Positions 1 to 32,000 of a stretch of 32,000 nt of DNA are shown here, in pieces. Numbering within the stretch: position 1 is the stretch's first letter; every line of letters starts with the position of its first letter. The notes under the pieces were generated by a model that worked only from the letters and a program-made list of their open reading frames with translations, did not search any database and was not told the DNA's origin. A program made the position numbers and the translations under genes. Source of the DNA: Candidatus Saccharimonadota bacterium (lineage in GTDB: Bacteria; Pseudomonadota; Gammaproteobacteria; Enterobacterales; Enterobacteriaceae); NCBI GenBank assembly GCA_000217635.1, contig CP001817.1, positions 390,001-422,000 on the forward strand. The letters run 5' to 3'.

Positions 1-20
1 TATTCACCTGACCTTTCATA

Positions 21-563
21 TTATTTCTTTTTTGCCTCTTTAATTATTACTTTTTCATGAAAATAACGAATTCCTTTACCTTTATAGGGTTCTGGAACAC
101 GATATGCTCTTATATTAGCAGCAACCTGTCCTACTAATTGTTTATTTACACCGGTTAAAGAAAGTTCCGTATTAGATAACACATCTACCGTAATATATTT
201 TGGTAAATAATATATAATAGGATGCGAGAAACCGAGAAATAATTTTAATATGTTAGTATGCTCTAAAGTTACACGATAACCTACACCAAATAACTGTAAT
301 TTTTTAGTATACCCATTTGTAACTCCAAAAATCATATTTTGTAAAATTGAACGACATGTACCTGCTTGCATCCAACCATACGATTCTGATATATGATTAT
401 GAGTAACAAATAACATATTTTTTTTATAATTTATTTTAATACATTTATGTATACGATATTTTAATAATCCTAAATGACCTGTAATAGTAATTACAGGTAT
501 ATCGCTCAAAGATATTGAAATAGATTTAGGTATATTAATAGGTAATTTTGCGACTCGAGACAT
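21..563 (-). CDS. rplF: 50S ribosomal protein L6
   Basis: 180-aa ORF. MSRVAKLPI... at the N-terminus and ...RAYRVPEPYKGKGIRY...KEAKKK at the C-terminus align full length with E. coli L6. Lies downstream of rpsH as in the spc operon. Confidence 0.97.
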   Translation of the reverse strand: MSRVAKLPINIPKSISISLSDIPVITITGHLGLLKYRIHKCIKINYKKNMLFVTHNHISESYGWMQAGTCRSILQNMIFGVTNGYTKKLQLFGVGYRVTLEHTNILKLFLGFSHPIIYYLPKYITVDVLSNTELSLTGVNKQLVGQVAANIRAYRVPEPYKGKGIRYFHEKVIIKEAKKK

Positions 564-588
564 ACTTTAACTCTCCAAATAATTTATA

Positions 589-981
589 TTATTCCACATA
601 ACATATTATTTCTCCGCCTAAATTTTTTATACGTGCAACACGATCTGTTAAAATACCACATGATGTAGATATAATAGCAATACCTAAACCTTGCATAATA
701 AGCGGAAGATCTTTTTTTTTACAATATTGACGTAACCCTGGCCGACTAACTCGCGAAATATTTTCAATAACCGGTTTACCTTTAAAATATTTTAATACTA
801 TTTCTAAAACTTGATATGTCTTTTTATAAATATGATAATTTATAATATATCCTTCGCTTTTTAATACTTTAGTAATATTTTTTTTTAATTTAGAAAATGG
901 TATAGTAATAGAAATTTTATTTGCGCGTTGTCCATTACGAATACATGTAATCATATCTGATATTGGATCTTGAATACTCAT
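589..981 (-). CDS. rpsH: 30S ribosomal protein S8
   Basis: [18 protein letters not shown]... to ...[10 protein letters not shown] matches E. coli S8 (130 aa). The track ORF begins at an upstream TTG (1029). The ATG at 981 gives the orthologous length. Confidence 0.95.
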
Positions 982-1029
982 AAATATATTTCTCACTTCT
1001 ATAAATAGAACAATATTTTTAAAAGACAA

Positions 1030-1335
1030 CTACCAACTAGCTTTTGTTAACCCTGGAATTTCTCCTCTCATTGCTGATTCTCTTACTTTCATACGACTTA
1101 AACCAAATTTACGGAGAAATGCATGAGGACGTCCAGTTTGTCGACAGCGATTTCGTTGTCTGGAAGGACTTGAATCTCTTGGTAAAGTCTGTAATTTTAA
1201 CATGGCATTCCAACGGTCTTTTTCTAAAATACTTTGATTACATATAATTTTTTTTAATTTACATCGTAGTACATAAAATTTTAAAGCTAATTTAATTCGT
1301 TTAACTTCACGCGCTTTCATTGATTGTTTAGCCAT
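1030..1335 (-). CDS. rpsN: 30S ribosomal protein S14
   Basis: 101 aa. [13 protein letters not shown]... to ...[12 protein letters not shown] is the canonical S14. Confidence 0.97.
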
Positions 1336-1374
1336 CTTATCTTCTCTTATTATATATTATATAATTAATATCTT

Positions 1375-1923
1375 TTATTTTTTTCGAAAAGGAAAATTAA
1401 AAGCTGATAACAACGCCTGTCCTTCCATATCTGATTGTGCTTGTATAGTAATAGTAATGTCCATCCCTCTTATAGCATCAATTTTATCATAATTAATTTC
1501 AGGAAAAATGATCTGCTCACGTATACCTAAACTATAATTTCCCCGGCCATCAAATGAACGGACAGGCATGCCACGAAAATCCCGTATACGAGGAATAGCA
1601 ACAGTTATAAGTTTGTCAAAAAAATCCCATTTTCTATTGCCTCTCAAAGTTACTTTGCATCCAATAGGATATCCTTTACGAATTTTAAAAGTTGCAATAG
1701 ATTTTTTTGCTAACGTTACAATAGGTTTTTGACCAGAAATCAATTGCAAATCATTAATTGCATTATTTAACACCTTTTTATCAGAAATAGATTTTCCAAG
1801 ACCCATATTTAATGTTATTTTTTTAATTTGCGGAACCGCCATCACTGTTGTATAATGAAACCGTTTTAAAAGAATCGGAATCACGCTATTTATATAATAA
1901 GATTTTAACCGTGCTATCCTCAT
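1375..1923 (-). CDS. rplE: 50S ribosomal protein L5
   Basis: From the ATG at 1923, [10 protein letters not shown]...[14 protein letters not shown]... aligns with E. coli L5 position for position. The ORF extension up to 1974 overlaps the real C-terminal frame of rplX. Confidence 0.95.
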
Positions 1924-1942
1924 TATATCCAACTCCTCATTG

Positions 1943-2253
1943 TTAAATAACTTCATTGGTTGATTTAAATGCACGAACTTTCTTGTTATTTACCCAAATA
2001 AATTTTATTTTTCTTTTATTATTTTTTTATCAAAAATTGCTAAATTAGATAAATCAATAAATGCTTCTTTACTAATTATACCACTTTGTTTTTGTTTTGA
2101 AGGAACTGGTTTTTGATGTTTTTTTACCATATTAATTCCTTCCACAATAGCTTTATTAGATTTTGGACAAACCAGTTTTACTATTCCAGTTTTTCCTTTA
2201 TCTCGTCCAGTTAAAACAATAACATAATCATTTGAACGTATTTTGGCAGACAT
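1943..2253 (-). CDS. rplX: 50S ribosomal protein L24, reading frame broken at an A7 run (mRNA sense)
   Basis: The ORF 2005..2253 (82 aa) matches L24 residues 1-75 and then stops. The next frame from the run at 2022..2028 reads [26 protein letters not shown], matching the E. coli tail ...[15 protein letters not shown]. One extra A gives 103 aa, against 104 in E. coli. Confidence 0.85.
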
Positions 2254-2272
2254 ATTATTTTTACCTTAATAA

Positions 2273-2644
2273 TTATAATACCTCAGGAGCTAATGAAATA
2301 ATTTTCATAAATGATTCATTTCTTAATTCTCTAGTAACAGGCCCAAAAATACGAGTACCAATTGGCTGCCCTGTGGTGTCATTTAAAATAACACAAGCAT
2401 TTTTATCAAAACGAATAGTTGAACCATCAGTACGACAAATACCTTTTTTAGTACGAACTATAACCGCTTTCATAACATCACCTTTTTTTACTTTGCTTCG
2501 AGGGATTGCATCTTTAATTGCTACTTTAATAATATCCCCAATATTAGCATATCGACGTTTTGAACCACCTAAAACTTTAATGCACATAGCTAATTTTGCA
2601 CCAGAATTATCTGCAATATATAGTATTGTTTGTACTTGAATCAT
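2273..2644 (-). CDS. rplN: 50S ribosomal protein L14
   Basis: 123 aa. [17 protein letters not shown]... is the canonical L14 at full length. Confidence 0.97.
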
Positions 2645-2702
2645 ACTTAACCTTTTTTAAGAAATGTTTATATATATGTAAAATAAAAACCAATATATTG
2701 AA

Positions 2703-2735
2703 GACATGAAATGAATTTTCTTGATTATTCATGTC
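2703..2735 (-). terminator. Hairpin between rpsQ and rplN (possible S10-operon terminator or attenuator at the S10/spc junction)
   Basis: On the minus strand GACATGAA (17-nt loop) TTCATGTC forms an 8-bp stem about 20 nt after the rpsQ stop. It is followed by TTCAATATATTGGTTTTTATTTT. An alternative inner pairing ATGAA/TTCAT is possible. Confidence 0.3.
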
Positions 2736-2756
2736 TCCTTCATTTTACAAAGTACT

Positions 2757-3008
2757 TTAAAGTATCGATCGTTTTAATATACGAACTAAAATCCATGCTT
2801 TGGTTTTAGATCTAGGTCGGCACTCACAAATTTCTACTAAATCTCCAAGAGAACAGGAATTATTTTCATCATGTACATGTAGTTTTGTTTTTTTACTAAT
2901 AAATTTTTTATATATAGGATGTTTTATTCGACGATGTACCGTAACTACAATAGATTTCTGCATTTTATTACTTGTAATATACCCCTGTAAAATATTTTTT
3001 TTTTTCAT
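2757..3008 (-). CDS. rpsQ: 30S ribosomal protein S17
   Basis: 83 aa. ...[33 protein letters not shown]... matches S17. The start ATG overlaps the rpmC TGA (ATGA). Codons 2-5 lie in an A11 run. Confidence 0.96.
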
Positions 3009-3196
3009 TTTATAATATTTTTCCGATATGTTATTATAGTTTTAATACGTGCAATATTACGTTTCACGCATTTAATTAAATGAACTTTTTTTAATTTTCC
3101 GGAAGATAATTGTAAACGTAAATTTAATTTTTCTTTTAATAATCCAATTAATAATTTATGTAATTCCAAAGTATCTTTTTGATTTATTTTTTTCAT
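3005..3196 (-). CDS. rpmC: 50S ribosomal protein L29
   Basis: 63 aa, the same length and position as E. coli L29, between rplP and rpsQ. Confidence 0.93.
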
Positions 3197-3199
3197 ATA

Positions 3200-3610
3200 T
3201 TACATTACCGTTTTTAATATAAAAGCAGTTTTAATAGGTAATTTTGATGCCGCTAATTTAAATGCAACACGCGATTCTAATTCAGATATTCCATCTACTT
3301 CATATAAAATTTTACCAGGCTGAATTAATGCTACCCAGTATTCAACATTTCCTTTACCTTTTCCCATACGTACTTCTAATGGTTTTTGAGTAATAGGTTT
3401 ATCTGGAAAAATACGTATCCAAACTTTACCTTGACGTTTTATTGAACGTGTAATTGTACGTCGTGCTGCTTCAATTTGACGTGCAGTTAATCTTCCTCTA
3501 GCTATTGCTTGTAAACCAAAACGCCCAAAATGGATAGAATTTCCAATAGATAAACCACGATTTTTACCTTTATGCATTTTACGAAACTTTGTACGTTTAG
3601 GTTGTAACAT
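3200..3610 (-). CDS. rplP: 50S ribosomal protein L16
   Basis: 136 aa. [19 protein letters not shown]... is the canonical L16. Confidence 0.97.
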
Positions 3611-3625
3611 TTATTACTCCGAAAT

Positions 3626-4328
3626 TTATTTACGATACTTACGAGAAAATTTTTTCGTTAAAACAGCAGGTAAAATTTCTTTTTTTTGAATATTCCATTC
3701 CTCCTAAAATTTCACCCTTATAAATCCATACCTTTACCCCAATTATTCCATAAGTAGTATGTGCTTCAGATGTATTATATTCAATATCTGCTCTTAATGT
3801 ATGTAATGGCACTCGACCTTCACGATACCATTCTCTCCGTGCTATTTCTACCCCACCTAAACGTCCGCTAACTTCAACTTTAATTCCTTGAGCCCCTTGG
3901 CGCATTGCATTTTGTACGGAACGTTTCATTGCTCTACGAAACATAATTCGCCTTTCTAATTGCGATGCAATATTATTAGCTACTAATTTAGCATCTAATT
4001 CTGGTTTTCGTATTTCTGATATATTTATTTGCACTGGAACGTTTGCAATTTTAAAAATTTTTTCTCTTAATTTTTCTACATCTTCTCCTTTTCTCCCTAT
4101 TACAATACCAGGGCGCGCTGTATATATCGTAATCCTAATACTTTTAGATGGACGCTCAATAATAACTCTAGATATTGACGCTTTTATTAATGTTTTTTTT
4201 AAAAAAGAACGAACTTTAAAATCACTATCTAAATAATTTGGAAACTCTTTTTTACTTGCAAACCAAATAGAATCCCAGGATTTAATAATTCCTAATCTCA
4301 TCCCGGTTGGATGTACTTTTTGACCCAT
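3626..4328 (-). CDS. rpsC: 30S ribosomal protein S3, C-terminal tail out of frame after an A8 run (mRNA sense)
   Basis: [14 protein letters not shown]... is the canonical S3. The as-written ORF (3639..4328) ends ...[21 protein letters not shown]. With A7 instead of A8 at 3680..3687 the tail reads [25 protein letters not shown]. That is the same length as the E. coli tail [25 protein letters not shown] and gives 233 aa in total. Confidence 0.88.
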
Positions 4329-4330
4329 TA

Positions 4331-4681: not shown

Positions 4682-4709
4682 TTATATTTACATCCTCTAA
4701 TATTTTACT

Positions 4710-4988
4710 TCAATGTTTTTTAATTTTTTTATCTGCAGTATGTCCTCGATACGTACGAGTAATTGAAAATTCTCCTAACTTATGCCCTACCATTTCTTCT
4801 GTAATAAAAACAGGAATATGTTGACGTCCATTATGTACGGATATTGTTAAACCAATCATATTCGGAAAAATAGTTGAACGTCTAGACCAAGTACGAATCG
4901 GCTTTTTGCTATCTTTTTTTAAAGATATATCAACCTTTTTAAATAAATGTGCATCTACAAAAGGACCTTTTTTAAGGGAACGCGGCAT
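4710..4988 (-). CDS. rpsS: 30S ribosomal protein S19
   Basis: 92 aa. [12 protein letters not shown]...[24 protein letters not shown] is the canonical S19. Confidence 0.97.
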
Positions 4989-5002: not shown

Positions 5003-5823
5003 TTATTTAATTCGATGACGTATAATAAATTTTCAGTCCGTTTATTTTTTCTAGTTTTATAACCTTTAGTTTTCAAACCCCAAGGACTAACTGGGTGTTT
5101 ACCAAAATTTCTTCCTTCACCCCCCCCGTGCGGATGATCAACAGGATTCATAGCTGTCCCGCGCACCGTTGGACGAATACCGTATCGACGTGATGCCCCT
5201 GCTTTACCTAAAACACGCAACATGTGTTCAGAATTCCCTACTTCACCAATAGTTGCTCGACAGTTTACATGAACTTTTCGTAGTTCTCCGGACCGTAAAC
5301 GCAACGTTGCATATTTCTCATCTCGAGATAAAAGTTGTGCATAACTACCAGCAGAACGAGCAATCTGACCTCCTTTCCCTAATTTCATTTCAATATTATG
5401 AATAATTGTACCAACAGGAATATTTTTTAAAGGTAATGCATTTCCTAAACTTACCATAACTGTAGGTCCAGATTCTATAACATCACCTTTCTGAATGCCT
5501 TTAGGTTCTAAAATATAATGTCTACTACCATCTTGATATAGCAATAAAACAATATTCGCAGATCGATTTGGATCATACTCTATATTTTTTACTATTGCAC
5601 TAATTCCATCTTTATTTCTTTTAAAATCGAGAATCCGATATAATTTTTTATGTCCTCCTCCGATATGACGAGTAGTAATACGTCCATAATTATTACGACC
5701 CCCTGTCCTTTTTTTCTTTTGTAATAATGGCCCATAAGGTTTCCCTTTATATAAATGTTTAGATACAACTTTAACAACATGACGTCTTCCAGGAGAAGTG
5801 GGTTTACACCTTATAATTACCAT
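5003..5823 (-). CDS. rplB: 50S ribosomal protein L2, last 11 codons shifted at a short A4T3 run
   Basis: [20 protein letters not shown]... is the canonical L2. The as-written ORF (4972..5823, 283 aa) ends ...[25 protein letters not shown], running 17 nt into rpsS. With one extra nt at 5027..5033 it ends ...KNKRTE(K/N)FIIRHRIK*, against E. coli ...SNKRTDKFIVRRRSK*, giving 273 aa as in E. coli. Confidence 0.88.
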
Positions 5824-6139: not shown

Positions 6140-6741
6140 ATAAATACTTCCTCAATATTTTTAATAGCTTTAATAGTAACTACTATATTTTGATAAGTAA
6201 TTAATTTTATAGGATTGATTTGAGAGATATTTATAACATCTATGTAATATAAATTTTTTGCAGCAAGGGATAAATTTTTATTAATATAATGCGTAATAAT
6301 TAATGCATTATTAATTTTAAAAATATTTAATTGATTTAATAAACTTTTTGTTTTTGGAGAATCTATATTAAATTTATTGAAAATTAATACACGATTTTGT
6401 CGAATTAATTCAGAAAAAATACTTTTTATTGCACCTTGATACATTTTTTTGTTTATTTTTTGTTTATAATTTTTTGGTTTAGCGGCAAAAGTTACCCCTC
6501 CTGACCTCCAAATAGGACTCCTTAAAGATCCTGCTCGTGCTCGACCAGTGCCTTTTTGTCGCCATGGTTTTTTTCCAGATCCAGATACTTCCGATCTACT
6601 TTTTTGAGATTTACTACCTTTTCGCCGACTAGATAAATACGAAGTGACTACTTGATGAATTAAGGGTTCATTTAAAGATTTTCCAAAAACAATGTCAGAT
6701 AACGTCAACATTTCTTCTGAATCTTGAATTTCTATTTCCAT
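6136..6741 (-). CDS. rplD: 50S ribosomal protein L4
   Basis: From the ATG at 6741 the product is 201 aa, as in E. coli. ...[34 protein letters not shown]... matches L4. AGGAGT lies 7 nt upstream. The track ORF extends to 6801. Confidence 0.95.
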
Positions 6742-6754: not shown

Positions 6755-7390
6755 CTAGTGTGTCTTTTTAACAGACGGTTTAATAATAATATTATTTCCA
6801 TTAAATCCAGGAATCGCTCCTTTGATTAAAAGCAAATTTTTTGAAATATCTATTTTAATAATTTTTAAATTTTGAATAGTAACACGTGTATTACCTAAAT
6901 GCCCAGACATTTTTTTCCCTTTAAAAACACGACCAGGAGTTTGATTTTGACCAATTGATCCAGGCGCTCTATGAGATAATGAATTTCCATGAGTAGCATC
7001 TTGCATACAAAAATTCCATCTTTTTACTGTACCTGAAAACCCTTTCCCTTTAGAAATTCCAGTTATATCTACCATTTTAACTTTAGATAATAAATTTAAT
7101 GTAATTTCGTATTTTAATTTATACTGATTAATATCATTAGTACGAAATTCCCATAAACCACGTCCTACATTAACCCCTGATTTTAAAAAATGTCCTGTTT
7201 CTGGTTTTAAAATATGACTGTTTTTTTTTATTCCCGTAGTTACTTGAATTGCATTATAAGAATCAGTACGTAATGATTTAATTTGTGTTATAGTATTTTT
7301 TAAAACTTCAATTACAGATATAGGTACTGAAATACCGTCATCTAAAAAGATACGAGACATACCTATTTTTTTACCAATTAAACCTATCAT
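6755..7390 (-). CDS. rplC: 50S ribosomal protein L3
   Basis: 211 aa. [15 protein letters not shown]... and ...[32 protein letters not shown] are the canonical L3. Confidence 0.97.
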
Positions 7391-13524: not shown

Positions 13525-13997
13525 ACTAAATATTTAGAACCTTTAGTGTATTATCTTATAAAAATTATTTTTATATAATAAATATTATTTATTAGATTCT
13601 AAAACAAAATAAAAAGACATTACCAAATATTAAAAAATAATTTATATCAAAAAATTATATATATTAAAATATATTATTCTATATATTTATAAAATTCACA
13701 AAAATTTAAAAATAAAAATTAAAAAAAATATTATTATTTTTATTAATTGCAATATATAAAATTATATTTAGATTAATATTTAATAATTTATTTAATTTAT
13801 TTTTTTAATAATAAAATATATTTTCTTAATATATCATGGATATATAAAAAAACCAAATAAACCATAAAAATATATAATCAAATCAAATCTTATAATAAAA
13901 TTTTAAAATATATTTATATTATTATATTAATGATTATTAAGACACTCATTGTTAATAAAATAATTTAAAAAATATTTTAAAGTTAATTTTAAATTTT

Positions 13998-15010
13998 TTA
14001 TGAATTTAAAATATTTTGCACAATATACAAAGTTTTTTTACTATATTTCCGTGCATTTTCCGCTCCATTTTTTAATATTTCATGTAAATAATAAATATCT
14101 TTGCGAAAAATAAAATAAGACTTTTGAATTTTTAATATTACTTCTATTAAAATATCTAATAAATATTTTTTAAAATTTTGATATGTATATCTTTCAAATT
14201 CTAATTCTAACTTAGAAATTTTTTTACCTGTTAACGAAGATAATATCATCAATAAATTTGAAATACCCGGCTTATTATCTTTATCATATATAACTTGCGG
14301 AGGATTATTAGAATCAGTTAATGCTTTTTGTAATTTCATACGTATTAATTTTATATCATCTAATAAAAATATCGAATTGTTCAAATTAATATCTGACTTA
14401 GACATTTTTTTTATAGGATTTTGTAATGCCATAATTTTATAACCAATATTGTTCAAAATAATAGAAGGAATTGTAAAAATATCTCCATATTTCTTATTAA
14501 AACGATGCGCAATACTTTGAACTAATTCTAAATGTTGTTTTTGATCTAATCCAACAGGTACAAAATTTGTTTGATATAATAAAATATCAGCTGCCATTAA
14601 TACGGGATAACTAAATAAAGAAAGGTTAATAGGAATATTTTTATTAAGATTAACTTTATATTTAAACTGAGTCATTCTAGATAATTCACCAAAATAACTA
14701 AAATTACTTAATATCCAATATAATTGCGTATGCTCCAAAACATGAGACTGTAAAAAAACAGTGCTTTTATTAGGATCTACTCCACAAGATAAAAATAACG
14801 CTAAGGTATCTAAAATTCTATTATTTAAAGATTCTTGAATTTGATTTGGAAAAACAGTTAAAGCATGTAAGTCAGATATACAAAAAAAAAACATAAGTAT
14901 TTTTTTTGAAATTCTGCCCAACAATTTATTGTTCCGCAATAATTACCGATTGTTAATAAACCAGATGGCTGAATACCTGTAAATAAAATATCTTTAGAAA
15001 TTTTTTGCAC
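13998..15010 (-). pseudogene. trpS: Tryptophan--tRNA ligase, split by a frameshift in a T10 run (mRNA U10)
   Basis: The ORF 13998..14939 matches E. coli TrpRS from CIVDQHAITV onward (here CISDLHALTV) and includes KMSKS. The missing N-terminus (GTG at 15010: QKISKDILFTGIQPSGLLTIGNYCGTINCWAEFQKKYLCFFF) is in another frame and joins at 14882..14891. Confidence 0.9.
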
Positions 15011-17006: not shown

Positions 17007-17567
17007 TTAATTAAATAACGTTTTTATATCATATTTTAATCGTAAAGTTTTTAAAATATTATAAATAATTGAATTTATATTATAGTTATTAGTATCAATA
17101 ATTATATTAGCAATTCTATTATAAATAGGATCTCTTTCTTTAGCTAATTTTTCTAAAATATATTTATCAGATTGATAAATATTAGTTAATAATGGTCTAG
17201 TTTTATCTGATTTAGTCCTTAATAGTTGTTGTTCTACCGTAGCCTTTAAATATATAACAATACCTCTAGTTATTAAAAAATTTCTAGAATTTAATGAAAG
17301 AATAGATCCTCCTCCTGTAGATAATACTACTCTACTTTTTTTTGTTAAATCATCAATTACTTTTTGTTCTCGATTTCTAAAACCTAATTCACCTTCTATA
17401 TCAAAAATCCATCCTATATTCACTCCAGTTTTTTTTTCAAGTACTCGATCCGAATCATAAAAATTCATATTTAAAAATTTTGCTAAATGACGGCCTATTG
17501 TACTTTTTCCGGCTCCCATAGGACCAATTAAAAAAATATTTTTTTTTAAACATACTATAATTTCCAA
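17007..17567 (-). CDS. aroK: Shikimate kinase I
   Basis: ...[31 protein letters not shown]... matches AroK. The in-frame start is the TTG at 17567. An SD-preceded ATG at 17553 is out of frame by one nt across an A9 run (see findings). Confidence 0.9.
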
Positions 17568-17986: not shown

Positions 17987-18568
17987 TTAACTATACGAAT
18001 GTATACCATGTTTATGATTTGTAATATCTTGAACCCCTGCAATTTGAGGAAATTCTTTTAATAATTTTTTTTCAATCCCGTCTTTTATTGTTAAATCAAT
18101 CATAGAGCAACCATTACAACTTCCTAAAAATTTTAATAATACATATTTAGTTTTAGTTATTTTTATAAATAAAACTTTACCACCATGTAAAGACAACTGA
18201 GGATTAATATTTTGTATAAGATAATATTGTATTTTATCTTCTAACGATAATTTCTTGTTAAGTAATTTAAAGATTTTGAAAACGGCGCATTTAATGTAAT
18301 TTTTTTTTTCTAAATTATTTTCCAATAAATCAACTTTTACATCTTTTAAAAATATTAAAATTGATCGACATATATATAAATCAAAATATTTATATGATAT
18401 TTTTTTATCAGACACTGGATCTATATCTCCAGAAAAACAATATTTCATTCCACATTCAGCGCGAATCGTGCCAGGAAATTTCATAAATATTCTAATACCT
18501 ATCAAATCCACTTGTGTCGATATTAATTCACGAATGTATTCTTGTACCGCACTTGAAAAAGTAATCAT
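17987..18568 (-). CDS. nfuA: Fe/S biogenesis protein NfuA
   Basis: 193 aa. The N-terminal IscA-like domain (…AECGMKYCF) and the C-terminal Nfu domain (INPQLSLHGGKV...GSCNGCSM...HSYS) match E. coli NfuA. Divergent from bioH, as in E. coli. Confidence 0.9.
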   Translation of the reverse strand: MITFSSAVQEYIRELISTQVDLIGIRIFMKFPGTIRAECGMKYCFSGDIDPVSDKKISYKYFDLYICRSILIFLKDVKVDLLENNLEKKNYIKCAVFKIFKLLNKKLSLEDKIQYYLIQNINPQLSLHGGKVLFIKITKTKYVLLKFLGSCNGCSMIDLTIKDGIEKKLLKEFPQIAGVQDITNHKHGIHSYS

Positions 18569-18700: not shown

Positions 18701-19471
18701 ATGTATATAAAAAAATATTACTCGATAATAAAAACAAAAACAAATTTAGTATTTCTACATGGATGGGGATTAGATTCTAATATTTGGACATATATGATTC
18801 CAATTTTAAAATTATATTATAATTTATATTTCATAGACTTACCTGGTTTTGGAAGTAATATTAAAGAACCTATACTAAATTTTAAGAAATTATCAATAAA
18901 AATATTAGAACAACTACCAAAAAAAATAATATGGATTGGGTGGTCTATGGGTGGTTTAATTATAACCTATATCAGTTTACATTACCCTAAACGTACTGAT
19001 GGGATTATTTTAATCAATTCCTCTCCTTTTTTTTTAAAAAAAAATGATTGGTTTGGGATAAATATTTTAGTTTTAAAAAAAATAGAAAAGAAATGCATAA
19101 AAATTATGATAATTTTTAAAAAATTTTATTTATTACATATTAAAACAAAAAAATCAAACCTGATTAATGTATTAAATTTTAATCAGATAAAAAAATTTTT
19201 CTGTAAACCCACAAAAAATGCTATACAATACGGATATATCTGTTTAACTACAATTGATCAAAGAAAAAAATTGAATCATCTACAAGTACCATTATTACAA
19301 ATATATGGATCATTAGATAATATGGTACCTGTAACTAATATTAAAAATCTTGGTCAATTATATTCAAAATATTTTTTCTATATTATTCAAAATTCAAAAC
19401 ACGCACCTTTTTTTTCACATGTAAATGAATTATGTTGCATAATAATGAAATTTATTAAATATATTTCTTAA
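18701..19471 (+). CDS. bioH: Pimeloyl-ACP methyl ester carboxylesterase BioH
   Basis: 256 aa, the same as E. coli. LVFLHGWGLDSNIW, IDLPGFG, GWSMGG (nucleophile elbow), SLDNMVP (Asp) and KHAPFFSH (His) are all present. Confidence 0.88.
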   Translation: MYIKKYYSIIKTKTNLVFLHGWGLDSNIWTYMIPILKLYYNLYFIDLPGFGSNIKEPILNFKKLSIKILEQLPKKIIWIGWSMGGLIITYISLHYPKRTDGIILINSSPFFLKKNDWFGINILVLKKIEKKCIKIMIIFKKFYLLHIKTKKSNLINVLNFNQIKKFFCKPTKNAIQYGYICLTTIDQRKKLNHLQVPLLQIYGSLDNMVPVTNIKNLGQLYSKYFFYIIQNSKHAPFFSHVNELCCIIMKFIKYIS

Positions 19472-23083: not shown

Positions 23084-23498
23084 ATGTTAATTATAGCCTT
23101 TGATTACGGGATAAAAAACATTGGCATAGCAATTTCTGAAACAAAGTTATTATACGCACAGCCTATTTGTACAATTAAAAATAAAAATTGGCTTGAAATA
23201 GATAAAATTATTAAAATTTGGTTACCATTGTTAATAATTGTTGGATATCCAATAGACATGAATGGAAAAAAACAAAAAATTACAAAAAAAAAGTTGATAA
23301 ATTTTGTAATCAACTAAAAAAAGATATAGTATTCCAATTATTATACATGATGAACGACTTACTACAATTGAAGCTAAATCAGTTATCTTTCAAAAAGGTG
23401 GGTATAAAGCTTTAGAAAAAACATGTATTCATTCAACTGCAGCAAAAATTATTTTAGAAAGTTGGTTAAAAACTCAATATAAAAAAACAATTAAATAA
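23084..23498 (+). pseudogene. ruvX: Holliday-junction resolvase-like nuclease RuvX (YqgF), two frameshifts in A runs
   Basis: Three consecutive frames together spell an E. coli YqgF-like protein. They read MLIIAFDYGIKNIG...GYPIDMNGKKQKITKKK, then VDKFCNQLKK, then RYSIPIIIHDERLTTIEAKS...AAKIILESWL...*. The junctions are at A9 (23284..23292) and A7 (23316..23322). Adding one A to each gives 138 aa, the E. coli length. Confidence 0.85.
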
Positions 23499-23688: not shown

Positions 23689-24388
23689 TTATAATTTATA
23701 AATATATTCAAATATTATATTACCTAAATTGATTCCTCGTTTTTCATAATTTGTTTGATATGAGAAATATTTTTGATTACATTTTTTATGTATATTAATT
23801 CTTTTAAAAAAATTATATTTTAAAAAATTTTTTTATATGATAAGCATAAGAAAGACAATCTGTTTTAATATATATTATACCATTAGTCATTAATTTTTTA
23901 GATAATAACTTAATAAATACATCTGTTATTATTCTTCTTTTATGATGTTTTCGTTTAGGCCAAGGGTCAGGAAAAAAAATTTGTACCATAGTTAATATCT
24001 TGTTAGGAATCATATATAAAAAAACATCAATAGCATCATAATTTATAATTTTAATATTATTAATATTATATAAATTAGCATATTTTATATTAGATAATAT
24101 ACCAGGAAAATAAACTTCAATACCTAAAAAATTTATATTAGGATAATATTCGGCTTTTTTAACAAAATATTCTCGCGAACCAAAACCGATATCTACAATA
24201 ATAGGTTTATTATTTTCAAATATATCTTGTAAGGATATATAATTATTTGTATATGTAATTCCAAATTGCGCCCATAATTTCTGTATGATATTAGAGGAAT
24301 TTAAAAAATTTGTTTTTCTATATCTTAATACATAACTTTTTGTTTTATAATTAGTATGAAACAGTTGAAAATTAAAACAATCTTTCAT
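23689..24388 (-). pseudogene. trmB: tRNA (guanine46-N7)-methyltransferase TrmB, C-terminal 40-odd codons in another frame
   Basis: ...VDIGFG...FLGIEVY.PG... and ...MVQIFFPDPWPKRKHHKRRI... match TrmB. The ORF stops at 23813 (…YHIKKFFKI*). The adjacent frame continues NFLKYNFFKRINIHKKCNQKYFSYQTNYEKRGINLGNIIFEYIYKL*, against E. coli ...[20 protein letters not shown]. The start at 24388 follows AGGAAG, and an alternative ATG lies at 24394. Confidence 0.82.
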
Positions 24389-24463: not shown

Positions 24464-25507
24464 ATGATTTTTTCGCAAAAAATTTTAAATTGGTATCACA
24501 ATAATGGACGTAAAAATCTTCCGTGGAAAAAAAATAATAATATATATTATATTTGGATTTCTGAAATTATGTTGCAAAGAACACAAGTTAAAAAAGTAAT
24601 TCCTTATTATATAAAATTTATAAAAAATTTTCCTACTATAAAAATATTATTAAAAAATCCAATTGAAAAAATATTATATTTTTGGAGTGGATTAGGATTT
24701 TATCAAAGGGTACATAATATATATAAAACTGCTCATATCATACAAAAAAAATATCAAGGAAATTTTCCTACTACGCTTCCGGAAATAAAAAATTTACCGG
24801 GCATTGGAAAAACTACAGCTCATGCTATTTTATCCTTTTCTAAAAATTATTGTTATCCAATATTAGATTCTAATATTAAACGTATATTATTACGATATTA
24901 TTTTTCTACTAAAAAAAAATTTTATTTTCTGAAAAAAAAACTATGGAATATAATTAATCAATTAATTCCCGTACATTATGCTGAAAAATTTAATCAAGGT
25001 ATGATGGATCTTGGTGCCTTGATTTGTCATTATAAAAATCCTGAATGTTTATTATGTCCATTAAAAAATCAATGTAACTATTATAAAACAAAACAATCAA
25101 ATATTGAAAAATTATTTATCAAAAAGTTTTCGAAAAAAAAAATTGGCATGACTTTTATAATATTAAACTATAAAAACTTTATTTTATTACAAAAACAAAA
25201 AACACAAAAATTTTGGAAATCTTTATTTTGTTTTCCGATTCATTACTTTTCTATTACAGATAATATATGGAAAAATATAAAAAATATAAAAAATAACGTA
25301 TTTAAAATTATACCTCCTTTTATTCATCACTTTAGTCATATAAAATTATATATAACTGTATGCTTAATACCAATTAAAAAAAACAAAATAAAAATAAATC
25401 TTCAAAAAAAAGATCTCTGGTATGATATATTTTGTCCTCCAAAAATTGGAATACCTTCACCGGTTTCTAAAATTATTACAATTATTAAACAATACGGAAA
25501 TAAAATT
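24464..25507 (+). CDS. mutY: Adenine DNA glycosylase MutY (no stop codon of its own; ORF continues into yggX)
   Basis: [11 protein letters not shown] (catalytic Glu), PILDSNIKR (Asp) and the 4Fe-4S ligands [17 protein letters not shown] are present. The C-terminal domain ...[10 protein letters not shown]...[16 protein letters not shown] matches MutY. The 406-aa ORF runs in frame into YggX at 25508. Confidence 0.88.
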
Positions 25508-25746
25508 ATGAAAAAAATAAAACCTCGCACTATTTTTTGTACATTTCTAAAAAAAGAAGCTTTAGGATTGGATTATCCATTTTATCCTGGCGAAATAGGA
25601 AATAAAATATATAATGAAATTTCTCAAGAAGCATGGCAACATTGGATAAAAAAACAAACAAAAATTATAAATGAAAAAAATTAAATATGTTTTTAGAAGA
25701 TGATAGAAAAAAACTAGAAAAAGAAATGATAAAATTTTTATTTTAA
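25508..25746 (+). pseudogene. yggX: Fe(2+)-trafficking protein YggX, frameshift in an A7 run
   Basis: [57 protein letters not shown] matches E. coli YggX. The frame ends at 25684. With A8 at 25674..25680 it continues [22 protein letters not shown], against E. coli [22 protein letters not shown]. Confidence 0.82.
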
Positions 25747-25784
25747 AAAAAATAAATAGATAGTTAAATGTTCATTTAAAATAT

Positions 25785-25804
25785 TGCGCTTGCTATAAAG
25801 CGCA
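25785..25804 (+). terminator. GC-rich hairpin between convergent yggX and sbcB
   Basis: TGCGCTT (25785..25791), a 6-nt loop, then AAGCGCA (25798..25804). Four consecutive G:C pairs are very unlikely by chance in spacers this AT-rich. It lies about 40 nt after the extended yggX stop. Confidence 0.5.
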
Positions 25805-26069
25805 TATTATAAAAATATTTATCAAAAAATAAAAAATAAATTAATTTAAATAATTAAAAAAAAAATAATAAATCAATGTTTTTATTATAATTTTTTAGTA
25901 AAAAGAAAATTTTAATTTTGAAACTCTATAAAATATAAAAGATATATTTTAAATGCACGTATAAAATATACTGTTATATATAAACAAAAAATTTTAAAAA
26001 ACCTATCTTCACTTTTATAATTTTATAAAAATAAAAATTACTTTATATTCAAAATATTTTTTATAAAAT

Positions 26070-27505
26070 TTAACAAAAATTATTAATTTTATATATTAAT
26101 TTATCAACATACTTTATTAATTTCTTTAATAAATATAATTTTTTAAAATTGTCATAATATTTAATTTTTAAAAAATAAATTTTATTAAAATATTCTGTTA
26201 TTAATTTAGAATTTACTATATTTTGACAATGTTTTTTCCAAATTTTCTTTTCTAATAAATTTAAAGAATGAGGAAAATTTCTCGCCCGTAATCTAAAAAT
26301 AATTTTCTTTAAACGAACATCAAAAAAATCTATATTTTTAATTTTCCAAAATTCTGGAGAAGTTTTTATGTAATAAATTTAGTAATAATTTATCTTTATA
26401 ATTAAAAAAACTATCATATAACATTAAATCTATATTTTTCGATTTAGCTATTTTTAAATTATAATTATTTGAAAAAACAGAAATAACCCATTTTTTTATA
26501 GCATTATTATGAAAAAATAAAAAAAAATTTTTTTGATATTTCATATAATTTAGTTTAAGTCTCTGGCACGATTTTTCAGATAATGAATTATATTTAAAAA
26601 ACATAGGTGATTTATTTAAATAAATAACTTTCATTCCTAATAATAATAAATCATGTATTTTATAATTAATATTATTAGAGTTTTGATACAATGAAAAAAT
26701 ATCTTTAAAACTAGCATTTAAATCAAAAACTAAAAGTAGATTATTATTATTTGGATGATAACCAATAACCATGATACAACTAATATTTTTTTTTTTAGAA
26801 CCAAAAATATTAGATATATAAAAAAATGGTTTTTGATAATTTAAATTAATAAATTTTATTATGTTTTTTTTTTGAGAATTTTTATATAACTTAAAAAAAA
26901 AATTTTTATTTGTAAACATAATAACCTTGCCACTTCAATTGTTGCCAGAACATCCGACGAAGCATCATGAACATTAGCATGAGTAATATTATTTATTTTT
27001 GTAAAATCAGATAACTTAAAACTAACATAACCTTTAGAATTTTTAGGCCAAAAAATATTTTTTGGATAATAAATATAAAATGCTCTTAAAACATTTAACA
27101 TATCCCAAGTAGAATTTCCATTCTTCCAAGACCATTCATATGGATCAAAACAATTTCTATAAAATATATTACGTGTAATTAAATTATCAAATTTTAAATT
27201 ATTAAATCCAATAATACATGTATTTTTTTTCATAAAATATTATATATTTTTTTGAAAAAAATATTCATTAATACCTATTTTACATAAATCTTGGGGTAAT
27301 ATTTGAGTAATTAATATAGCATTAGGATTAGGTAAATAATCTAACGGAGGGATACAAAAAAATTTTTTTTATCAATTATATTAAAAGATAAATCTGTTCT
27401 AATGCTAGAAAATTGAGCGGGTTTATCTAAAGCTGTATCTGTTCCAAAAGTTTCATAATCATAAAATAAAAAACTTTTACATAATGTATTATATTTTTTA
27501 AACAT
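26070..27505 (-). pseudogene. sbcB: Exodeoxyribonuclease I (sbcB) pseudogene, full length but with 3 frameshifts and 1 in-frame stop
   Basis: Five collinear pieces cover essentially all of E. coli ExoI, which is 475 aa. (1) MFKKYNTLCKSFLFYDYETFGTDTALDKPAQFSSIRTD... (2) FFCIPPLDYLPNPNAILITQ... ending at the TAA at 27240..27242. (3) MKKNTCIIGFNNLKFDNLITRNIFYRNCFDPYEWSW...HDASSDVLATIEVARL. (4) FTNKNFFFKLY... to ...LHKNFSRILEN. (5) KNIDFFDVRLKKIIFRLRARNFP... ending at the stop at 26070. Confidence 0.88.
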
Positions 27506-27557
27506 ATAAATATAACTCTAAAAAATAATTATTTAAATAATAAAAATTTCATATAAA

Positions 27558-27630: not shown

Positions 27631-27825
27631 ATAATTTAAATTTATAACATAAAAATTTAAATAAATCAATTAAAAAAAAACAAGAAAAATGAATAATAAA
27701 AAATTTATATATTTTTCATAATCTTAAAAAAAATATTTATATATATTTATTTTTTTAATAAAAAATATAGATTACTAAAAAAATTTGTTTTATAATATAA
27801 ATATAATACTTTTAAAAAAATATTC

Positions 27826-27898
27826 GGCCCCTTAGCTCAGTGGTTAGAGCACACGACTCATAATCGTTTGGTCGCTGGTTCAAATCCAGCAGGGGCCA
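27826..27898 (+). tRNA. ileX: tRNA-Ile2 (genomic anticodon CAT, lysidine-dependent; not tRNA-Met)
   Basis: GGCCCCTTAGCTCAGTGGTTAGAGCACACGACTCATAATCGTTTGGTCGCTGGTTCAAATCCAGCAGGGGCCA differs at only a few positions from E. coli ileX as I recall it. It lacks the elongator-Met (GGCTACG...) and initiator (CGCGGGG...) acceptor stems. Confidence 0.8.
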
Positions 27899-27928
27899 AT
27901 TTTTAATATAATAAAAAATATTTTTTAA

Positions 27929-28351: not shown

Positions 28352-28448
28352 AAATATATCCTGTATAATTTCAAAAATCTTGTCTTAATCTATAAAAAAC
28401 GTAAATTTAAATTAAAAATTAAAAATAATATTATAAATTATATTAAAA

Positions 28449-28904
28449 TTATGAATTAGAATTAATAATCGAGATACTTATATTAGTACATATTCCTTTA
28501 TATGGAGAAAAAATTACAGTATGTTCCCCTAAATAGCGCAACAAACCATTTGGTAGTTTAATTTCTTGTTTTTTTACAAAAATACCTTGTAAAGCAAGAG
28601 ATTTAATAATATCTGAAACTCCAACAGAACCAAAAATTTTTTTCTTTTCACTAGATTTTTTATAAATAATAATTGACTTTATCGATTGAATTTTTTTAAT
28701 TCGCACATTAGCTTCGAGTATTTTTTCATTTTGTTGTTTTTCTAAATTTAATATAGAATTTTCAAACTTTTTAATATTTTTATTGGTTGCTAAAATTACT
28801 TTTTCTTTTGGAATTAAATAATTACGAGCATATCCATTTTTTACATGAATTAATTGACCCGATTTTCCTAATTTTTTTATTGTAACTAGTAAAATTACTT
28901 TCAT
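28449..28904 (-). CDS. rplI: 50S ribosomal protein L9
   Basis: 151 aa. MKVILL....LGKSGQLIHVKNGYARNYLIP... matches L9. Lies downstream of rpsR. Confidence 0.95.
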   Translation of the reverse strand: MKVILLVTIKKLGKSGQLIHVKNGYARNYLIPKEKVILATNKNIKKFENSILNLEKQQNEKILEANVRIKKIQSIKSIIIYKKSSEKKKIFGSVGVSDIIKSLALQGIFVKKQEIKLPNGLLRYLGEHTVIFSPYKGICTNISISIINSNS

Positions 28905-28978
28905 AAATTAATTACATCCTATAAATCTTTAAATTTTTAAAAAAAATTATTTTTGTTTTTTATATTCAAATTTATTTA

Positions 28979-29206
28979 TTACTGATGTTGATCGGTATAT
29001 GGGATCAGAGCTAAATAACGCGCTATTTTAATTGCTTTTGATAATTGTCGTTGATATTTTGCTTTAGTTCCAGTAATGCGACTTGGAACAATTTTTCCAC
29101 TTTCAGTAATATAATTTTTTAACATCACAATATCTTTGTAATCAACATATTTAATTCCTTCAGCTGTAAATCTACAAAATTTTCTACGACGAAAATAACG
29201 TGCCAT
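28979..29206 (-). CDS. rpsR: 30S ribosomal protein S18
   Basis: 75 aa. [50 protein letters not shown] is the canonical S18. Confidence 0.97.
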
Positions 29207-29328
29207 ATCTATTTCCTTGTATATTATAAATGAATAAAATTAAAAAAAACACAATGAATAATTTGATATTTATTTACTGAAATAAAATTTTTAATTATTT
29301 TTATAAACTATTAATTTTAGTAGATTTT

Positions 29329-29679
29329 TTAGATAACAAAAAATATTTTTTTATTATCATTTTTTATTTTTAACATTGGAGAAATCTTTTTTATTGATTT
29401 TTTATTTATCAAAATTAAACTTCGAATAATGTTATTATTAAATTTAAAATGTCTTTCTAATTCCTTTATTAACGGAACCGTTGCTTTAATATTCATTAAT
29501 AAAAAATGAGCTTTTCTTAACTTTTGAATTGCATACGATAAAGATTTTCGACCCCAATCTTCTAAACGATAAATCTTTCCTTTATTAAGGATAATAATTT
29601 TTTTATATATATCAATAATATGAGTAATGTTTTCACTTTGATCGGGACGAATTATTAATATAATTTCATAATACCGCAT
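29329..29679 (-). CDS. rpsF: 30S ribosomal protein S6
   Basis: 116 aa. MRYYEIILIIRPDQSE...IYRLEDWGRKSLSYAIQKLRKAHFLLMN matches S6. The acidic tail is absent. Confidence 0.95.
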   Translation of the reverse strand: MRYYEIILIIRPDQSENITHIIDIYKKIIILNKGKIYRLEDWGRKSLSYAIQKLRKAHFLLMNIKATVPLIKELERHFKFNNNIIRSLILINKKSIKKISPMLKIKNDNKKIFFVI

Positions 29680-29931
29680 ATCTCTGATTCCTTTATTATT
29701 ACTTTATAAAAATAATTTTAAATTTTTCCTAATATTATATTTTAACGTAAATATCTATAAAACTCAATGATATTATCAGCACAATTAAATAAATCTTAAA
29801 TATTAAAATTTTCTCTATAAATAATAAAAGTAGTTTTTTTAAAATAAAATAAAAAAAAAGCATTTATATATATAAAAAAATTAATAAATTTATATATTAT
29901 TAGAGTAAAAAAAATTATAATAATAACGTAA

Positions 29932-30906
29932 CTAATTATTTATAATAAATTTTAAATTAATAAAAGTATTATTTTTTGTAATAAATGATTTTTTTATTTT
30001 TTTCATTAATATATCTTTATTATTATCATAAATTAAATTAATATTTTTCCATTTACGTAACCATGTAAGTTGATGTTTTACAAGTTTACGCGTTGCCTGT
30101 AATGTATTACATATCATTTCTTGGTAAGTACATTTTTTTTCTAAATATTCCCACATTTGTTTATAACCAATGCTATTCATGAAAGGAAATGTATTTTTCC
30201 GAGATATTTGAGTATATAAATTTCGTACTTCTTCTTCTAAACCATTATTTAACATCTTTTGAAAACGAACACTAATTTTATTATATAATTTCTTTTTATT
30301 ATATGGAATTAAAGCAAATTGAAACACTTGATAAGGTAATTTTTTCTGACTTAAAGTTAATAATTTACTTAATGGAACTCCTCCAGAAACAAAAAAAACT
30401 TCTAAAGCTCTAATCACTCTTTGTACATCATTTATATGTATTTTAGAACTAGATGCAAAATCTACTTGTTTTAATCCATTAAATAATTTATTTTTATCAG
30501 CACAAAACAAATTGTTAAAGATGTAATCTCTAATTTTTTGATTAGATGTTGGAAGAGTAACTAAACCGTCTAATAAAGCTTTAAAATATAACATAGACCC
30601 TCCTACAAAAAAAGGAATTTTTTTTAAAGAGAATATATGTTTTATTTCTTTATATGCATCAATACAAAAATCAGCGGCAGAATAATTTTCATATATATTC
30701 TTAATATTAATTAATCTATAAGGTGTTTCGAAAAGTTGTTTTTCTGTTGGTTTATCTGTACCTATATTTAATTCTTTATATACTAATTTAGAGTCTACAC
30801 TTAATAATTCTATATTTGAAAATTTTTTTTTACTTCCATTGAAAATAAACTTTTTCCGATAGCCGTTGGTCCCATTAAAAAAAAATACTATGCGTTTAAA
30901 TTTCAT
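29932..30906 (-). CDS. miaA: tRNA dimethylallyltransferase MiaA; continuous ORF, but the P-loop segment is encoded in a different frame
   Basis: ...ELLSVDSKLVYKELNIGTDKPT..., FFVGGSMLYFKALL, RVIRALEV and IGYKQMWEYL match MiaA. Codons 8-28 of the ORF (FFFNGTNGYRKKFIFNGSKKK) do not. The alternative frame between the two 9-nt runs reads LMGPTAIGKSLFSMEV, against E. coli FLMGPTASGKTALAIEL. Confidence 0.88.
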   Translation of the reverse strand: MKFKRIVFFFNGTNGYRKKFIFNGSKKKFSNIELLSVDSKLVYKELNIGTDKPTEKQLFETPYRLINIKNIYENYSAADFCIDAYKEIKHIFSLKKIPFFVGGSMLYFKALLDGLVTLPTSNQKIRDYIFNNLFCADKNKLFNGLKQVDFASSSKIHINDVQRVIRALEVFFVSGGVPLSKLLTLSQKKLPYQVFQFALIPYNKKKLYNKISVRFQKMLNNGLEEEVRNLYTQISRKNTFPFMNSIGYKQMWEYLEKKCTYQEMICNTLQATRKLVKHQLTWLRKWKNINLIYDNNKDILMKKIKKSFITKNNTFINLKFIINN

Positions 30907-31684
30907 ATATATTTTATATCTTTATTTTTCTTTAAAAAAAATTTCATTTTCTTTAATATAATTAAAATTTTTATAATTAATATTACATACCAAATATATA
31001 ATACTAATATTGCAAATTAATATTTCAATGTTAATTTTTTTATTAATATAATTCAGTCATAAAAATATGATATATAAAATTTTTAATAAAAAATTAAATA
31101 TTATCATTTTAATTATCTTAAATTTTTTAAAATTAAAAACAAATAAAAAAATAATTCTATACATTATAAATATGTTTTTTATAAATAAGTATTTATAAAA
31201 ATAAATATATAATAATATTTTTATACAAAATAAAATTTATTAAAAATAAATCATTAATTTTGAATAAAAATATAACATATTATAAATCATGAATTAAAAT
31301 TTAACTATCTTAAAAAATATATTTTAATTTTATAATTTTTATAATACATCATGATTATATTAATAATAAAATATTTTTTTTAAAATAAACGTATAAAATT
31401 TAATAAATAATTGTTATTGATGTTATTATCTAATATAATAATTTTTTAAAAACTTTAAATAATAGTAACTTTTAAAAAAGTAATAATATTTCCTAATAAT
31501 TTAAAATATATATACATATATTTTATATATATTCTATAGTACATTTAACATTATCATTGATATAATCAATTAATTTAAAAAAATATTTTTTATTTTTTGA
31601 TAAAAAATTAATGTATAGTGATATATTATATATACAACACTATATAATATAAAAATAATTATTAAAATTAATATTGATAAAAAA

Positions 31685-32000
31685 ATGCATAAAAAAAAAC
31701 TTAATTTGGATTGATTTAGAAATGACAGGATTAAACCCTAAAATAGATCGAATTCTTGAAATCGCTTCCATTATTACTGACAAAAATTTAAATATTCTTG
31801 CAAAAGGTCCAAATATTCCGCTGTATCATAATAAAACTGTATTAAAAAATATGCACTCTTTAACTTACTCTATACATCAAAAGAATGGATTAATTAAAGA
31901 GATTAAAAAAAGCAAATATGTAGAAAAAGACGCAGAAAGAAAAACAATAAAATTTCTAAAAAAATGGGTAAAAATTTATACTTCTCCGATATGTGGAAAT
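31685..32000 (+). CDS. orn: Oligoribonuclease, 5' part (runs off the window); start uncertain
   Basis: NLIWIDLEMTGLNPKIDRILEIASIITDKNLNILAKGP... to ...SPICGN matches E. coli Orn. The ATG at 31685 is one nt out of frame across the A9 run 31691..31699. An in-frame TTG lies at 31674. Confidence 0.85.

Follow-up and report, generated by a model that had tools for sequence, protein, structure and literature searches.

Why do so many conserved genes in this stretch of the chromosome of Buchnera aphidicola of Cinara tujafilina, as deposited in 2011, change reading frame at A or T runs? A sequence-only reading had listed one-base shifts in rplX, rpsC, rplB, trpS, ruvX, trmB, yggX, miaA and sbcB, with aroK and orn as possible further cases. 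It had left two explanations undecided: real frameshifts at high density that are buffered by slippage, or homopolymer errors in the assembly. The window considered here, i.e. the whole 32-kb stretch, was searched by tblastn with E. coli K-12 proteins and orthologues from related Cinara Buchnera as queries, and events were placed by frameshift-aware protein-to-DNA alignment against the intact orthologues of those relatives, together with DNA alignments. Run lengths and directions are given in mRNA sense.

The tblastn hits were split or truncated for exactly the genes listed before, and the frameshift-aware alignments recovered the shift in each of the nine. In the window, about 23 one-base length discrepancies were identified in 15 genes, mostly in A or T runs. 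About ten of these are additional to the earlier list: one in rpsS, a compensated pair in nfuA, three one-base deficits in bioH and four events in sbcB. The frame breaking is real, and had been undercounted. The homopolymer lengths of the record are one base off (occasionally two) with respect to the frame encoding the conserved protein, and the aligner placed both over-counts and under-counts among the events. Four ribosomal protein genes are concerned:

2022..2028, minus strand: rplX, an A7 run one base short; L24 has 82 aa literally (product AEH39906.1) and 103 aa once corrected.
3680..3687, minus strand: rpsC, an A8 run with one extra base (7 nt in relatives); S3 has 229 aa literally (AEH39911.1) and 233 aa once corrected.
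4716..4721, minus strand: rpsS, an A6 run, one base short of the A7 of relatives; absent from the earlier list.
5027..5033, minus strand: rplB, an A4U3 block one base short (A5 in a relative); L2 has 283 aa literally (AEH39914.1) and 273 aa once corrected.

The corrected rpsC product ends in SRKYRK, as in the relatives, and the corrected rpsS product ends in KKTLK*, identical to that of relative L091, in place of the literal KKH*. The corrected lengths of S3 and L2, and that of RuvX (see below), had been claimed before and were reproduced. The next set comprises the only TrpRS gene seen, two genes shifted at their starts and two with compensating events:

14882..14891, minus strand: trpS, a U10 run (U8 in three relatives) at codon 41 of about 336.
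17539..17547, minus strand: aroK, an A9 run (8 nt in a relative) directly after the orthologous ATG.
18300..18309, minus strand: nfuA, first half of a pair, an A10 run with one extra base (A9 in a relative); absent from the earlier list.
18260..18267, minus strand: nfuA, second half of the pair, one base lacking near 18263 in a short-run context.
19083..19131, plus strand: bioH, three separate one-base deficits (~19087, ~19112 and ~19129) in short runs, net -3.
31691..31699, plus strand: orn, an A9 run directly after the orthologous ATG.

The trpS frame is regained with either U11 or U8, giving a protein of 336 or 337 aa. The suspicion about aroK and orn was borne out, the orthologous ATG being out of frame in both, with an in-frame TTG just upstream. 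In aroK this TTG (at 17567) retains a 186-aa ORF; in orn, MHKKNLIWIDLEMTG is in frame with A8, while with A9 only the TTG is. The 14 codons between the two nfuA events match the relative at 13 positions only in the hidden frame, and the hidden frames of bioH read EMHKNYD, FLKNF and LLH like the relative. The remaining events are located in ruvX, trmB, mutY-yggX, sbcB and miaA:

23284..23292, plus strand: ruvX, an A9 run one base short (or two extra with respect to the 8 nt of the relative).
23316..23322, plus strand: ruvX, an A7 run one base short.
23822..23834, minus strand: trmB, an A7U6 block with one extra base, the last 41-45 codons lying in the next frame.
25674..25680, plus strand: yggX part of the mutY-yggX ORF, an A7 run (A8 in three relatives).
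27356..27370, minus strand: sbcB, an A8U7 block of 15 nt against 19 nt in relatives (4 nt fewer), one short of frame.
27236..27261, minus strand: sbcB, a two-base deficit at U7-C-A7 (~27247-27261) and a one-base deficit ~17 nt downstream (~27238), net -3.
26893..26915, minus strand: sbcB, one base lacking in or adjoining an A5U10 block (~26911).
26358..26368, minus strand: sbcB, one extra base at an A5 run (~26361).
30877..30885, minus strand: miaA, first half of a pair, a U9 run with one extra base.
30823..30831, minus strand: miaA, second half of the pair, an A9 run one base short (A10 in relatives).

RuvX is extended from 77 to 138 aa once both runs are corrected, and the mutY-yggX product from 406 aa (AEH39936.1) to 427 aa, the length found in a relative. 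The segment between the two miaA events is NGTNGYRKK in the literal frame and, in the hidden frame, the P-loop LMGPTAIGKS as in the relatives, with 12 of its 17 residues conserved; the literal 324-aa product is AEH39941.1. At 27236..27261 of sbcB the literal frame is stopped by a TAA; the same segment gives KIYNIF in the hidden frame, versus KIHNIF in the relative. Judged by protein accession numbering, sbcB apparently lacks an annotated CDS in GenBank.

The affected genes had been held not to be ordinary dead genes, and this stands, given that the hidden frames have stayed open and conserved. No stop codon interrupts them, except at one sbcB junction region that is resolved by two further indels, and they terminate at the orthologous stop codons. 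They are as similar to the relatives as the in-frame parts are, and this identity does not change across the junctions, even in sbcB with its five events. The signature of a decaying pseudogene, in which stops gather and conservation of the ancestral frame is lost, is not seen in these genes.

The frequency of events rises with run length: implicated are fewer than 1% of the 818 runs of 4-6 nt in the window, 4 of 74 7-mers (5%), 2 of 26 8-mers (8%), 5 of 19 9-mers (26%) and 3 of 7 10-mers (43%). As had been remarked before, several runs of 9-11 nt are in frame, namely 14 of the 9-mers, four of the 10-mers and all three 11-mers. Sorted by tract, eight of the ~23 events fall in 9-10 nt, six in 7-8 nt and about a third in 2-6 nt. 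The eight in long tracts, together with the open and conserved downstream frames, are what would be expected if the frameshifts were real and long-standing, with RNA polymerase slippage on A/T tracts producing a fraction of in-frame transcripts. Such rescue at poly(A) tracts has been shown in Buchnera and Blochmannia, and Buchnera annotators, citing Tamas et al. 2008, accept the mechanism for conserved poly(A) frameshifts. The criterion they apply is conservation among strains, and every relative has the tracts in frame. The rate of slippage grows exponentially with the length of a run, and a survey across the Buchnera transcriptome found no restored reading frame (PMC5574713). Slippage would be negligible in the shortest runs and the 7-8 nt tracts also count against it, while the compensated sets in three genes would need two or three slips per transcript.

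The known slippage cases of Buchnera and Blochmannia resemble the present one in the AT-rich endosymbiont background, the A/T-tract shifts in conserved genes and the preserved downstream frames, but they concern long tracts, are conserved among strains and number few per genome. The sites in C. tujafilina, by contrast, are unshared, lie in tracts many of which are short, affect about 15 genes in 32 kb and include compensated pairs. Among the features that define the slippage class, the open downstream frame under purifying selection was found, whereas a long tract (~9 nt or more) is present for only eight of the ~23 events and a conserved shifted tract for none. Poly(A)-tract frameshifts with slippage rescue in these two endosymbionts were reportedly also described by Wernegreen et al. 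2010. We regard slippage as a highly improbable account of the window. Programmed frameshifting (prfB, dnaX) shares the continuation of a conserved protein in another frame; its sites, however, carry specific conserved slippery and stimulatory signals and are common across taxa, unlike those of C. tujafilina, which are not conserved. To our knowledge, none of the affected genes has a known programmed frameshift site.

A comparison of tract lengths with orthologous sites in related endosymbionts had been proposed. In every relative fetched (the Cinara Buchnera L086, L087/L090, L089, L091 and L092) these genes have their full length, and the run length at each site is in frame in these five related contigs or genomes, none of which shares a shift with the window. 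As a control, the same aligner was applied to a relative's 36.7-kb contig with a more distant reference. A single internal frameshift, in dusA, was detected in 17 genes of that contig, against at least 18 for the same genes in the window. The excess in the window is therefore not due to chance, since the control run was nearly clean (dusA excepted), and the event density exceeds that of the relatives over the same genes more than 10-fold. The dusA frameshift was reproducible in one relative, in two samples, and is apparently real.

All nine lone events lie at a relative gene position of <=0.13 or >=0.73 (P ~4e-4), and this avoidance of gene middles suggests that only visibly broken ORFs were fixed in finishing. 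The same avoidance is equally expected from natural selection on real indels. It is accordingly claimed also by the possibility that the indels are real, recent and filtered by selection. Essential genes (rplX, rpsC, rpsS, rplB, aroK, orn) would then tolerate only C-terminal or start-proximal shifts, the shifts in nfuA, bioH and miaA would be compensated by a nearby second indel, and the dispensable sbcB and ruvX, perhaps with trmB, miaA and yggX, would represent the first stage of pseudogene decay. In keeping with this, the multi-hit cases that break the ORF are the repair/recombination genes sbcB and ruvX, the former apparently without a CDS, and the relative's dusA offers a reproducible example. 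Homopolymer indels are moreover the main route of Buchnera gene inactivation (PMC5574713), which we count in its favour. Against it, a single lineage would have fixed about 23 indels within 27 kb of coding sequence, versus 0 or 1 in the relatives over the same genes, and all would have to be too recent for any decay of the hidden frames. The sole trpS is broken near its start, and compensation in miaA scrambles the P-loop, so function would not be restored, yet the other 290 codons show no damage. Nor has the C. tujafilina strain lost a mutator-type gene privately, mutL being absent beside miaA in the relatives too.

Ongoing inactivation of Buchnera genes by homopolymer indels was reportedly documented by Moran, McLaughlin and Sorek 2009 in a study of erosion dynamics, to which PMC5574713 alludes. 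Such erosion is similar in that A/T-run indels are the first lesion and early pseudogenes still look conserved. It differs in that it usually affects a handful of genes per whole genome and does not reach the only trpS or as many as four genes for ribosomal proteins within 32 kb, and in that a single event of this kind is seen in the relatives across this region. We hold recent, selected indels to be improbable, and real frameshifts of any kind, with or without slippage rescue, to be unlikely. That the deposited lengths are correct and the bacterium survives some 20 frame-disrupting indels in 32 kb through a mixture of slippage, tolerated C-terminal changes and compensating indels appears very unlikely.

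Of the two explanations left undecided before, homopolymer error in the assembly is favoured, and densely buffered frameshifts fare poorly. We are largely confident that most or all of the ~23 length differences arose as errors of base calling or assembly in the 2011 record and are not features of the living genome: the events are concentrated in homopolymers, become more frequent with run length, occur with both signs and are seen in this one assembly only. Literal ORFs of the window agree exactly with the GenBank entries AEH39906, AEH39911, AEH39914, AEH39936 and AEH39941 (Buchnera of C. tujafilina), which belong to a 444,925-bp contig; L24, S3 and L2 were therefore entered by the depositors at their literal lengths of 82, 229 and 283 aa. 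The DnaB of this strain has a single entry in the protein database, on one contig, and no second assembly of the strain is represented there. The finishing may have relied on ORF-integrity checks, by which errors that visibly broke needed genes would have been repaired, while those near gene ends, beside alternative starts or in compensating sets would have gone unnoticed and been annotated literally.

The record, whose accession CP001817 is taken from the literature, may on indirect evidence have been produced by 454 pyrosequencing, which like other flow- or signal-based platforms is known for homopolymer-length errors. For C. tujafilina bacteriome DNA the same laboratory reports 454 libraries of the FLX and Titanium types, and its companion genome of 2011 was sequenced with 454. 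In another Buchnera assembly, 454 indel errors needed correction with Illumina reads (PMC3890641). The window shares with 454 homopolymer errors the length-dependent single-base indels in both directions, their absence from independently sequenced relatives and the unchanged annotation of literal ORFs. It departs from them in the very short runs that hold several of the events and in the positional filter, which needs the added assumption of ORF-guided finishing. Events in such short runs (A4 in rplB, the three in bioH, the second in nfuA) are atypical of 454 unless coverage was low, and Buchnera genomes commonly carry real homopolymer indels, with dusA an apparent case in a relative; both observations speak against the error reading.

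With sequencing error as the preferred reading, the true rplX, rpsC, rpsS, rplB, trpS, aroK, nfuA, bioH, trmB, mutY-yggX, miaA and orn are predicted to be intact, and ruvX and sbcB are probably intact as well. Illumina HiSeq reads of C. tujafilina bacteriome DNA have been described (PMC4122931), and the site list given here shows directly where existing Illumina reads could be used to polish the record. By extrapolation to the whole genome, the number of such sites could be well over a hundred. Were the deposited lengths correct, no known genome would come close to this density of buffered frameshifts, which would include the only trpS and four ribosomal protein genes, and the window would illustrate in the extreme how gene function can outlast frameshifts, with a bearing on error buffering in degenerate genomes. 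Most likely, however, the discrepancies are uncorrected sequencing errors rather than new biology. The C. tujafilina Buchnera record is a standard reference in comparative work on Buchnera gene loss, and if these are errors, its truncated L24, S3 and L2, its broken TrpRS, its loss of sbcB, ruvX and trmB, and its MiaA without a P-loop would be artefacts.

The window, with a G+C content of 24%, holds the following genes.

S10/spc ribosomal protein operons, then tufA, fusA, rpsG, rpsL, tusBCD
trpS, rpe, aroB, aroK, tRNA-Ser, nfuA, bioH, ssb, dusA, dnaB
ruvX, trmB, mutY, yggX, sbcB
two tRNAs, then dut, rplI, rpsR, rpsF, miaA, orn

Exact matches were found in the public protein collection for ten literal ORF translations of the window, i.e., of reading frames exactly as deposited; eight are GenBank AEH39xxx proteins of Buchnera aphidicola (Cinara tujafilina), and the remaining two, fragments of ruvX and sbcB, match RefSeq WP_ entries only. 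The DnaB of the window is likewise 100% identical to the NCBI protein of this organism, whose genome has the accession CP001817 in the literature (Lamelas et al. 2011). The window thus reproduces the deposited sequence faithfully. The deposited annotation consists of the literal products, among them an 82-aa L24, a 229-aa S3, an L2 of 283 aa and a MiaA that lacks the P-loop; evidently, the depositors were unaware of the shifts and had not verified them. Three long non-coding spacers (13525-13997, 25747-26069 and 30907-31674) have a G+C content of just 8-11%. Remnants of fkpA, mutL and pgi, genes that E. coli or the Buchnera of C. piceae have at the corresponding positions, were undetected in the window spacers, and hemW is likewise absent from the window between ruvX and trmB.

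The window was searched by tblastn with E. coli K-12 proteins as queries, and a purpose-written frameshift-aware protein-to-DNA aligner was combined with DNA alignments to related Cinara Buchnera: that of C. piceae (LR217739, L086), LR217710 (L089), a 36.7-kb Logan contig from run SRR21069242 extending from the S10 operon to sbcB (L087 and L090), and two short contigs (L091 and L092) from a relative that is closer, with 94% identity in S3. The orthologues are full length in all fetched relatives.

Product lengths of orthologues in the relatives
rplX: 104 aa
rpsC: 233 or 235 aa
rplB: 273 aa
trpS: 336 or 338 aa
ruvX: 133-135 aa
trmB: 234 or 239 aa
sbcB: 479 or 483 aa
miaA: 312 aa

Single-base gaps were at times merged or misplaced in the MAFFT DNA alignments (bioH and the 3′ end of miaA) and were re-examined codon by codon, upon which the gap at the 3′ end of miaA was rejected as a frameshift. 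Events reported by the aligner at residue 1 of rplC and where orn is cut off were discarded as edge artefacts.

Both in the window (6755-6801) and in the closest relative (L091 1048-1100), the last ~47 nt of rplC are also covered by the longest rplD ORF (221 aa); alignment to the orthologue places the rplD start at 6741 (201 aa), and the overlap probably reflects merely an in-frame start codon upstream. In rplB, a G8 run of the mRNA (CAC GGG GGG GGT; C8 on the + strand at 5120-5127) encodes the conserved HGGGEG motif in frame. The relatives use GGT GGT GGT here, and such a run is unusual in a genome of 23% G+C.

In total, about 23 one-base length discrepancies relative to the frame of the orthologue (events) were identified in 15 genes. 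The sequence-only reading had proposed that many genes need a one-base correction in an A/T run; tblastn splits or truncates exactly the genes it named, each correction it listed was borne out by the aligner and the DNA alignments, and its corrected lengths were reproduced (rpsC 233, rplB 273, ruvX 138, trpS 336 or 337 and rplX 103 aa), but the number of sites had been underestimated. Additional events comprise one in rpsS (A6 vs. A7, run lengths in mRNA sense throughout), whose corrected tail KKTLK is the same as in the closer relative (L091), a compensated pair in nfuA, three one-base deficits at separate sites in a 45-nt stretch of bioH, and four further events in sbcB. In a control run of this aligner on the contig of a relative, for which the reference was more distant, an internal event was found among 17 genes only in dusA; this near-clean result indicates that the signal does not stem from the low complexity and AT richness of the sequence.

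Except for the bioH events and the second event of nfuA, where runs are very short, each event is within or next to a run of A or T, and over- and under-counts occur in similar numbers. The implicated fraction grows with run length, from 4 of 74 7-mers and 2 of 26 8-mers to 5 of 19 9-mers and 3 of 7 10-mers. The other events, about one third of the total, affect runs of 4-6 nt, of which there are 818, or still shorter contexts. At each site the run length in the relatives is the in-frame one, as in trpS (U10 vs. U8), yggX (A7 vs. A8) and miaA (A9 vs. A10), each in three relatives. The frames in which the orthologous proteins continue contain no stop codons (a lone stop at an sbcB junction is resolved by two further indels), are as similar to the relatives as the in-frame parts, and terminate at the stop codons of the orthologues. 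The view that these are not ordinary dead genes thus stands, and pseudogene decay was ruled out on the same grounds; programmed frameshifting was ruled out because the sites lack conservation in the relatives.

In three genes, compensated sets of nearby indels leave the ORF intact and scramble a short stretch. The literal frame of miaA reads NGTNGYRKK in place of the P-loop LMGPTAIGKS, and the 14 residues between the paired nfuA events agree with the relative at 13 positions in the hidden frame only.

After its A7-to-A8 correction, yggX forms one ORF with mutY, without intervening stop (window 24464-25746, 427 aa). The single ORF is also present in three related Cinara Buchnera (424-429 aa), where the HhH-GPD and Iron_traffic Pfam domains are found on one product.

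L086 14163-15437: mutY-yggX ORF
L087 12774-14057: mutY-yggX ORF
L089 14162-15451: mutY-yggX ORF

In E. coli, by contrast, mutY and yggX are separate genes, 27 nt apart. Since yggX retains its own ATG, it may also be translated separately.

The sequence-only reading had left two explanations side by side, slippage-buffered genomic frameshifts and assembly error. Slippage rescue of poly(A) frameshifts is an established phenomenon (Tamas et al. 2008), which Buchnera annotators invoke when a frameshifted tract is conserved among related strains. However, most sites here lack the tract length expected for such rescue and none is conserved among the relatives. Slippage becomes exponentially more frequent as runs lengthen, and in a survey of the whole Buchnera transcriptome no reading frame was found to be restored (PMC5574713). 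With about one third of the events in runs too short for slippage, and two or three slips per transcript needed for the compensated sets, broad rescue of real frameshifts by slippage is highly improbable.

The position of the events is informative as well. In all nine genes with a lone event, this lies at a relative position of ≤0.13 or ≥0.73, zones that contain just 42% of the coding runs of at least 7 nt (P ~4e-4), and outside ruvX and sbcB any event in the middle of a gene is part of a compensated set. ORF integrity has thus acted as a filter, through either finishing practice or selection. Real, recent indels filtered by natural selection would be expected to give the same pattern; moreover, the genes with multiple ORF-breaking hits, sbcB and ruvX, are repair/recombination genes and plausible early pseudogenes, and a number of events fall in runs so short that, except at low coverage, they would not be typical 454 errors. 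Nevertheless, five relatives are clean, with one internal frameshift, in dusA, over the same 17 genes. This frameshift, just downstream of an A10 tract (L087 9035-9045 and L088 ~2420-2435, both of a related Buchnera), looks real, as it recurs in two independent samples (Logan SRR21069242 and SRR21069211), and it sets the clade baseline at roughly one per 36 kb, compared to one event per 1.5 kb in the window. Strain-specific loss of mismatch repair was considered as the cause of a real indel burst, but mutL is also missing beside miaA in the relatives, so that the strain is not singled out by it. Selection on real indels therefore seems an unlikely general explanation, although some of those in sbcB and ruvX may be genuine, even with errors accounting for most of the rest.

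Assembly error in the deposited record is most likely the explanation, because the discrepancies are private to one record among independently sequenced relatives and the depositors annotated the literal products. The short runs and multiple slips that count against slippage favour error too, as does the miaA pair, which would yield no functional enzyme. The testable features of homopolymer sequencing error are found here. In another Buchnera assembly, Illumina reads were needed to correct 454 indels (PMC3890641). Error is also favoured by the practice of the depositing laboratory, where bacteriome DNA of C. tujafilina was made into 454 FLX and Titanium libraries and the companion genome of 2011 was sequenced with 454. 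In the related literature searched, no direct statement was found on platform or frameshifts for the CP001817 genome, which is probably 454-based. Finishing guided by inspection of ORFs is consistent with the positional pattern, in that visibly truncating frameshifts would be re-sequenced, while shifts at gene ends, beside an alternative start, or compensating each other would escape notice. The finding is thus of low biological interest, yet of use for curation.
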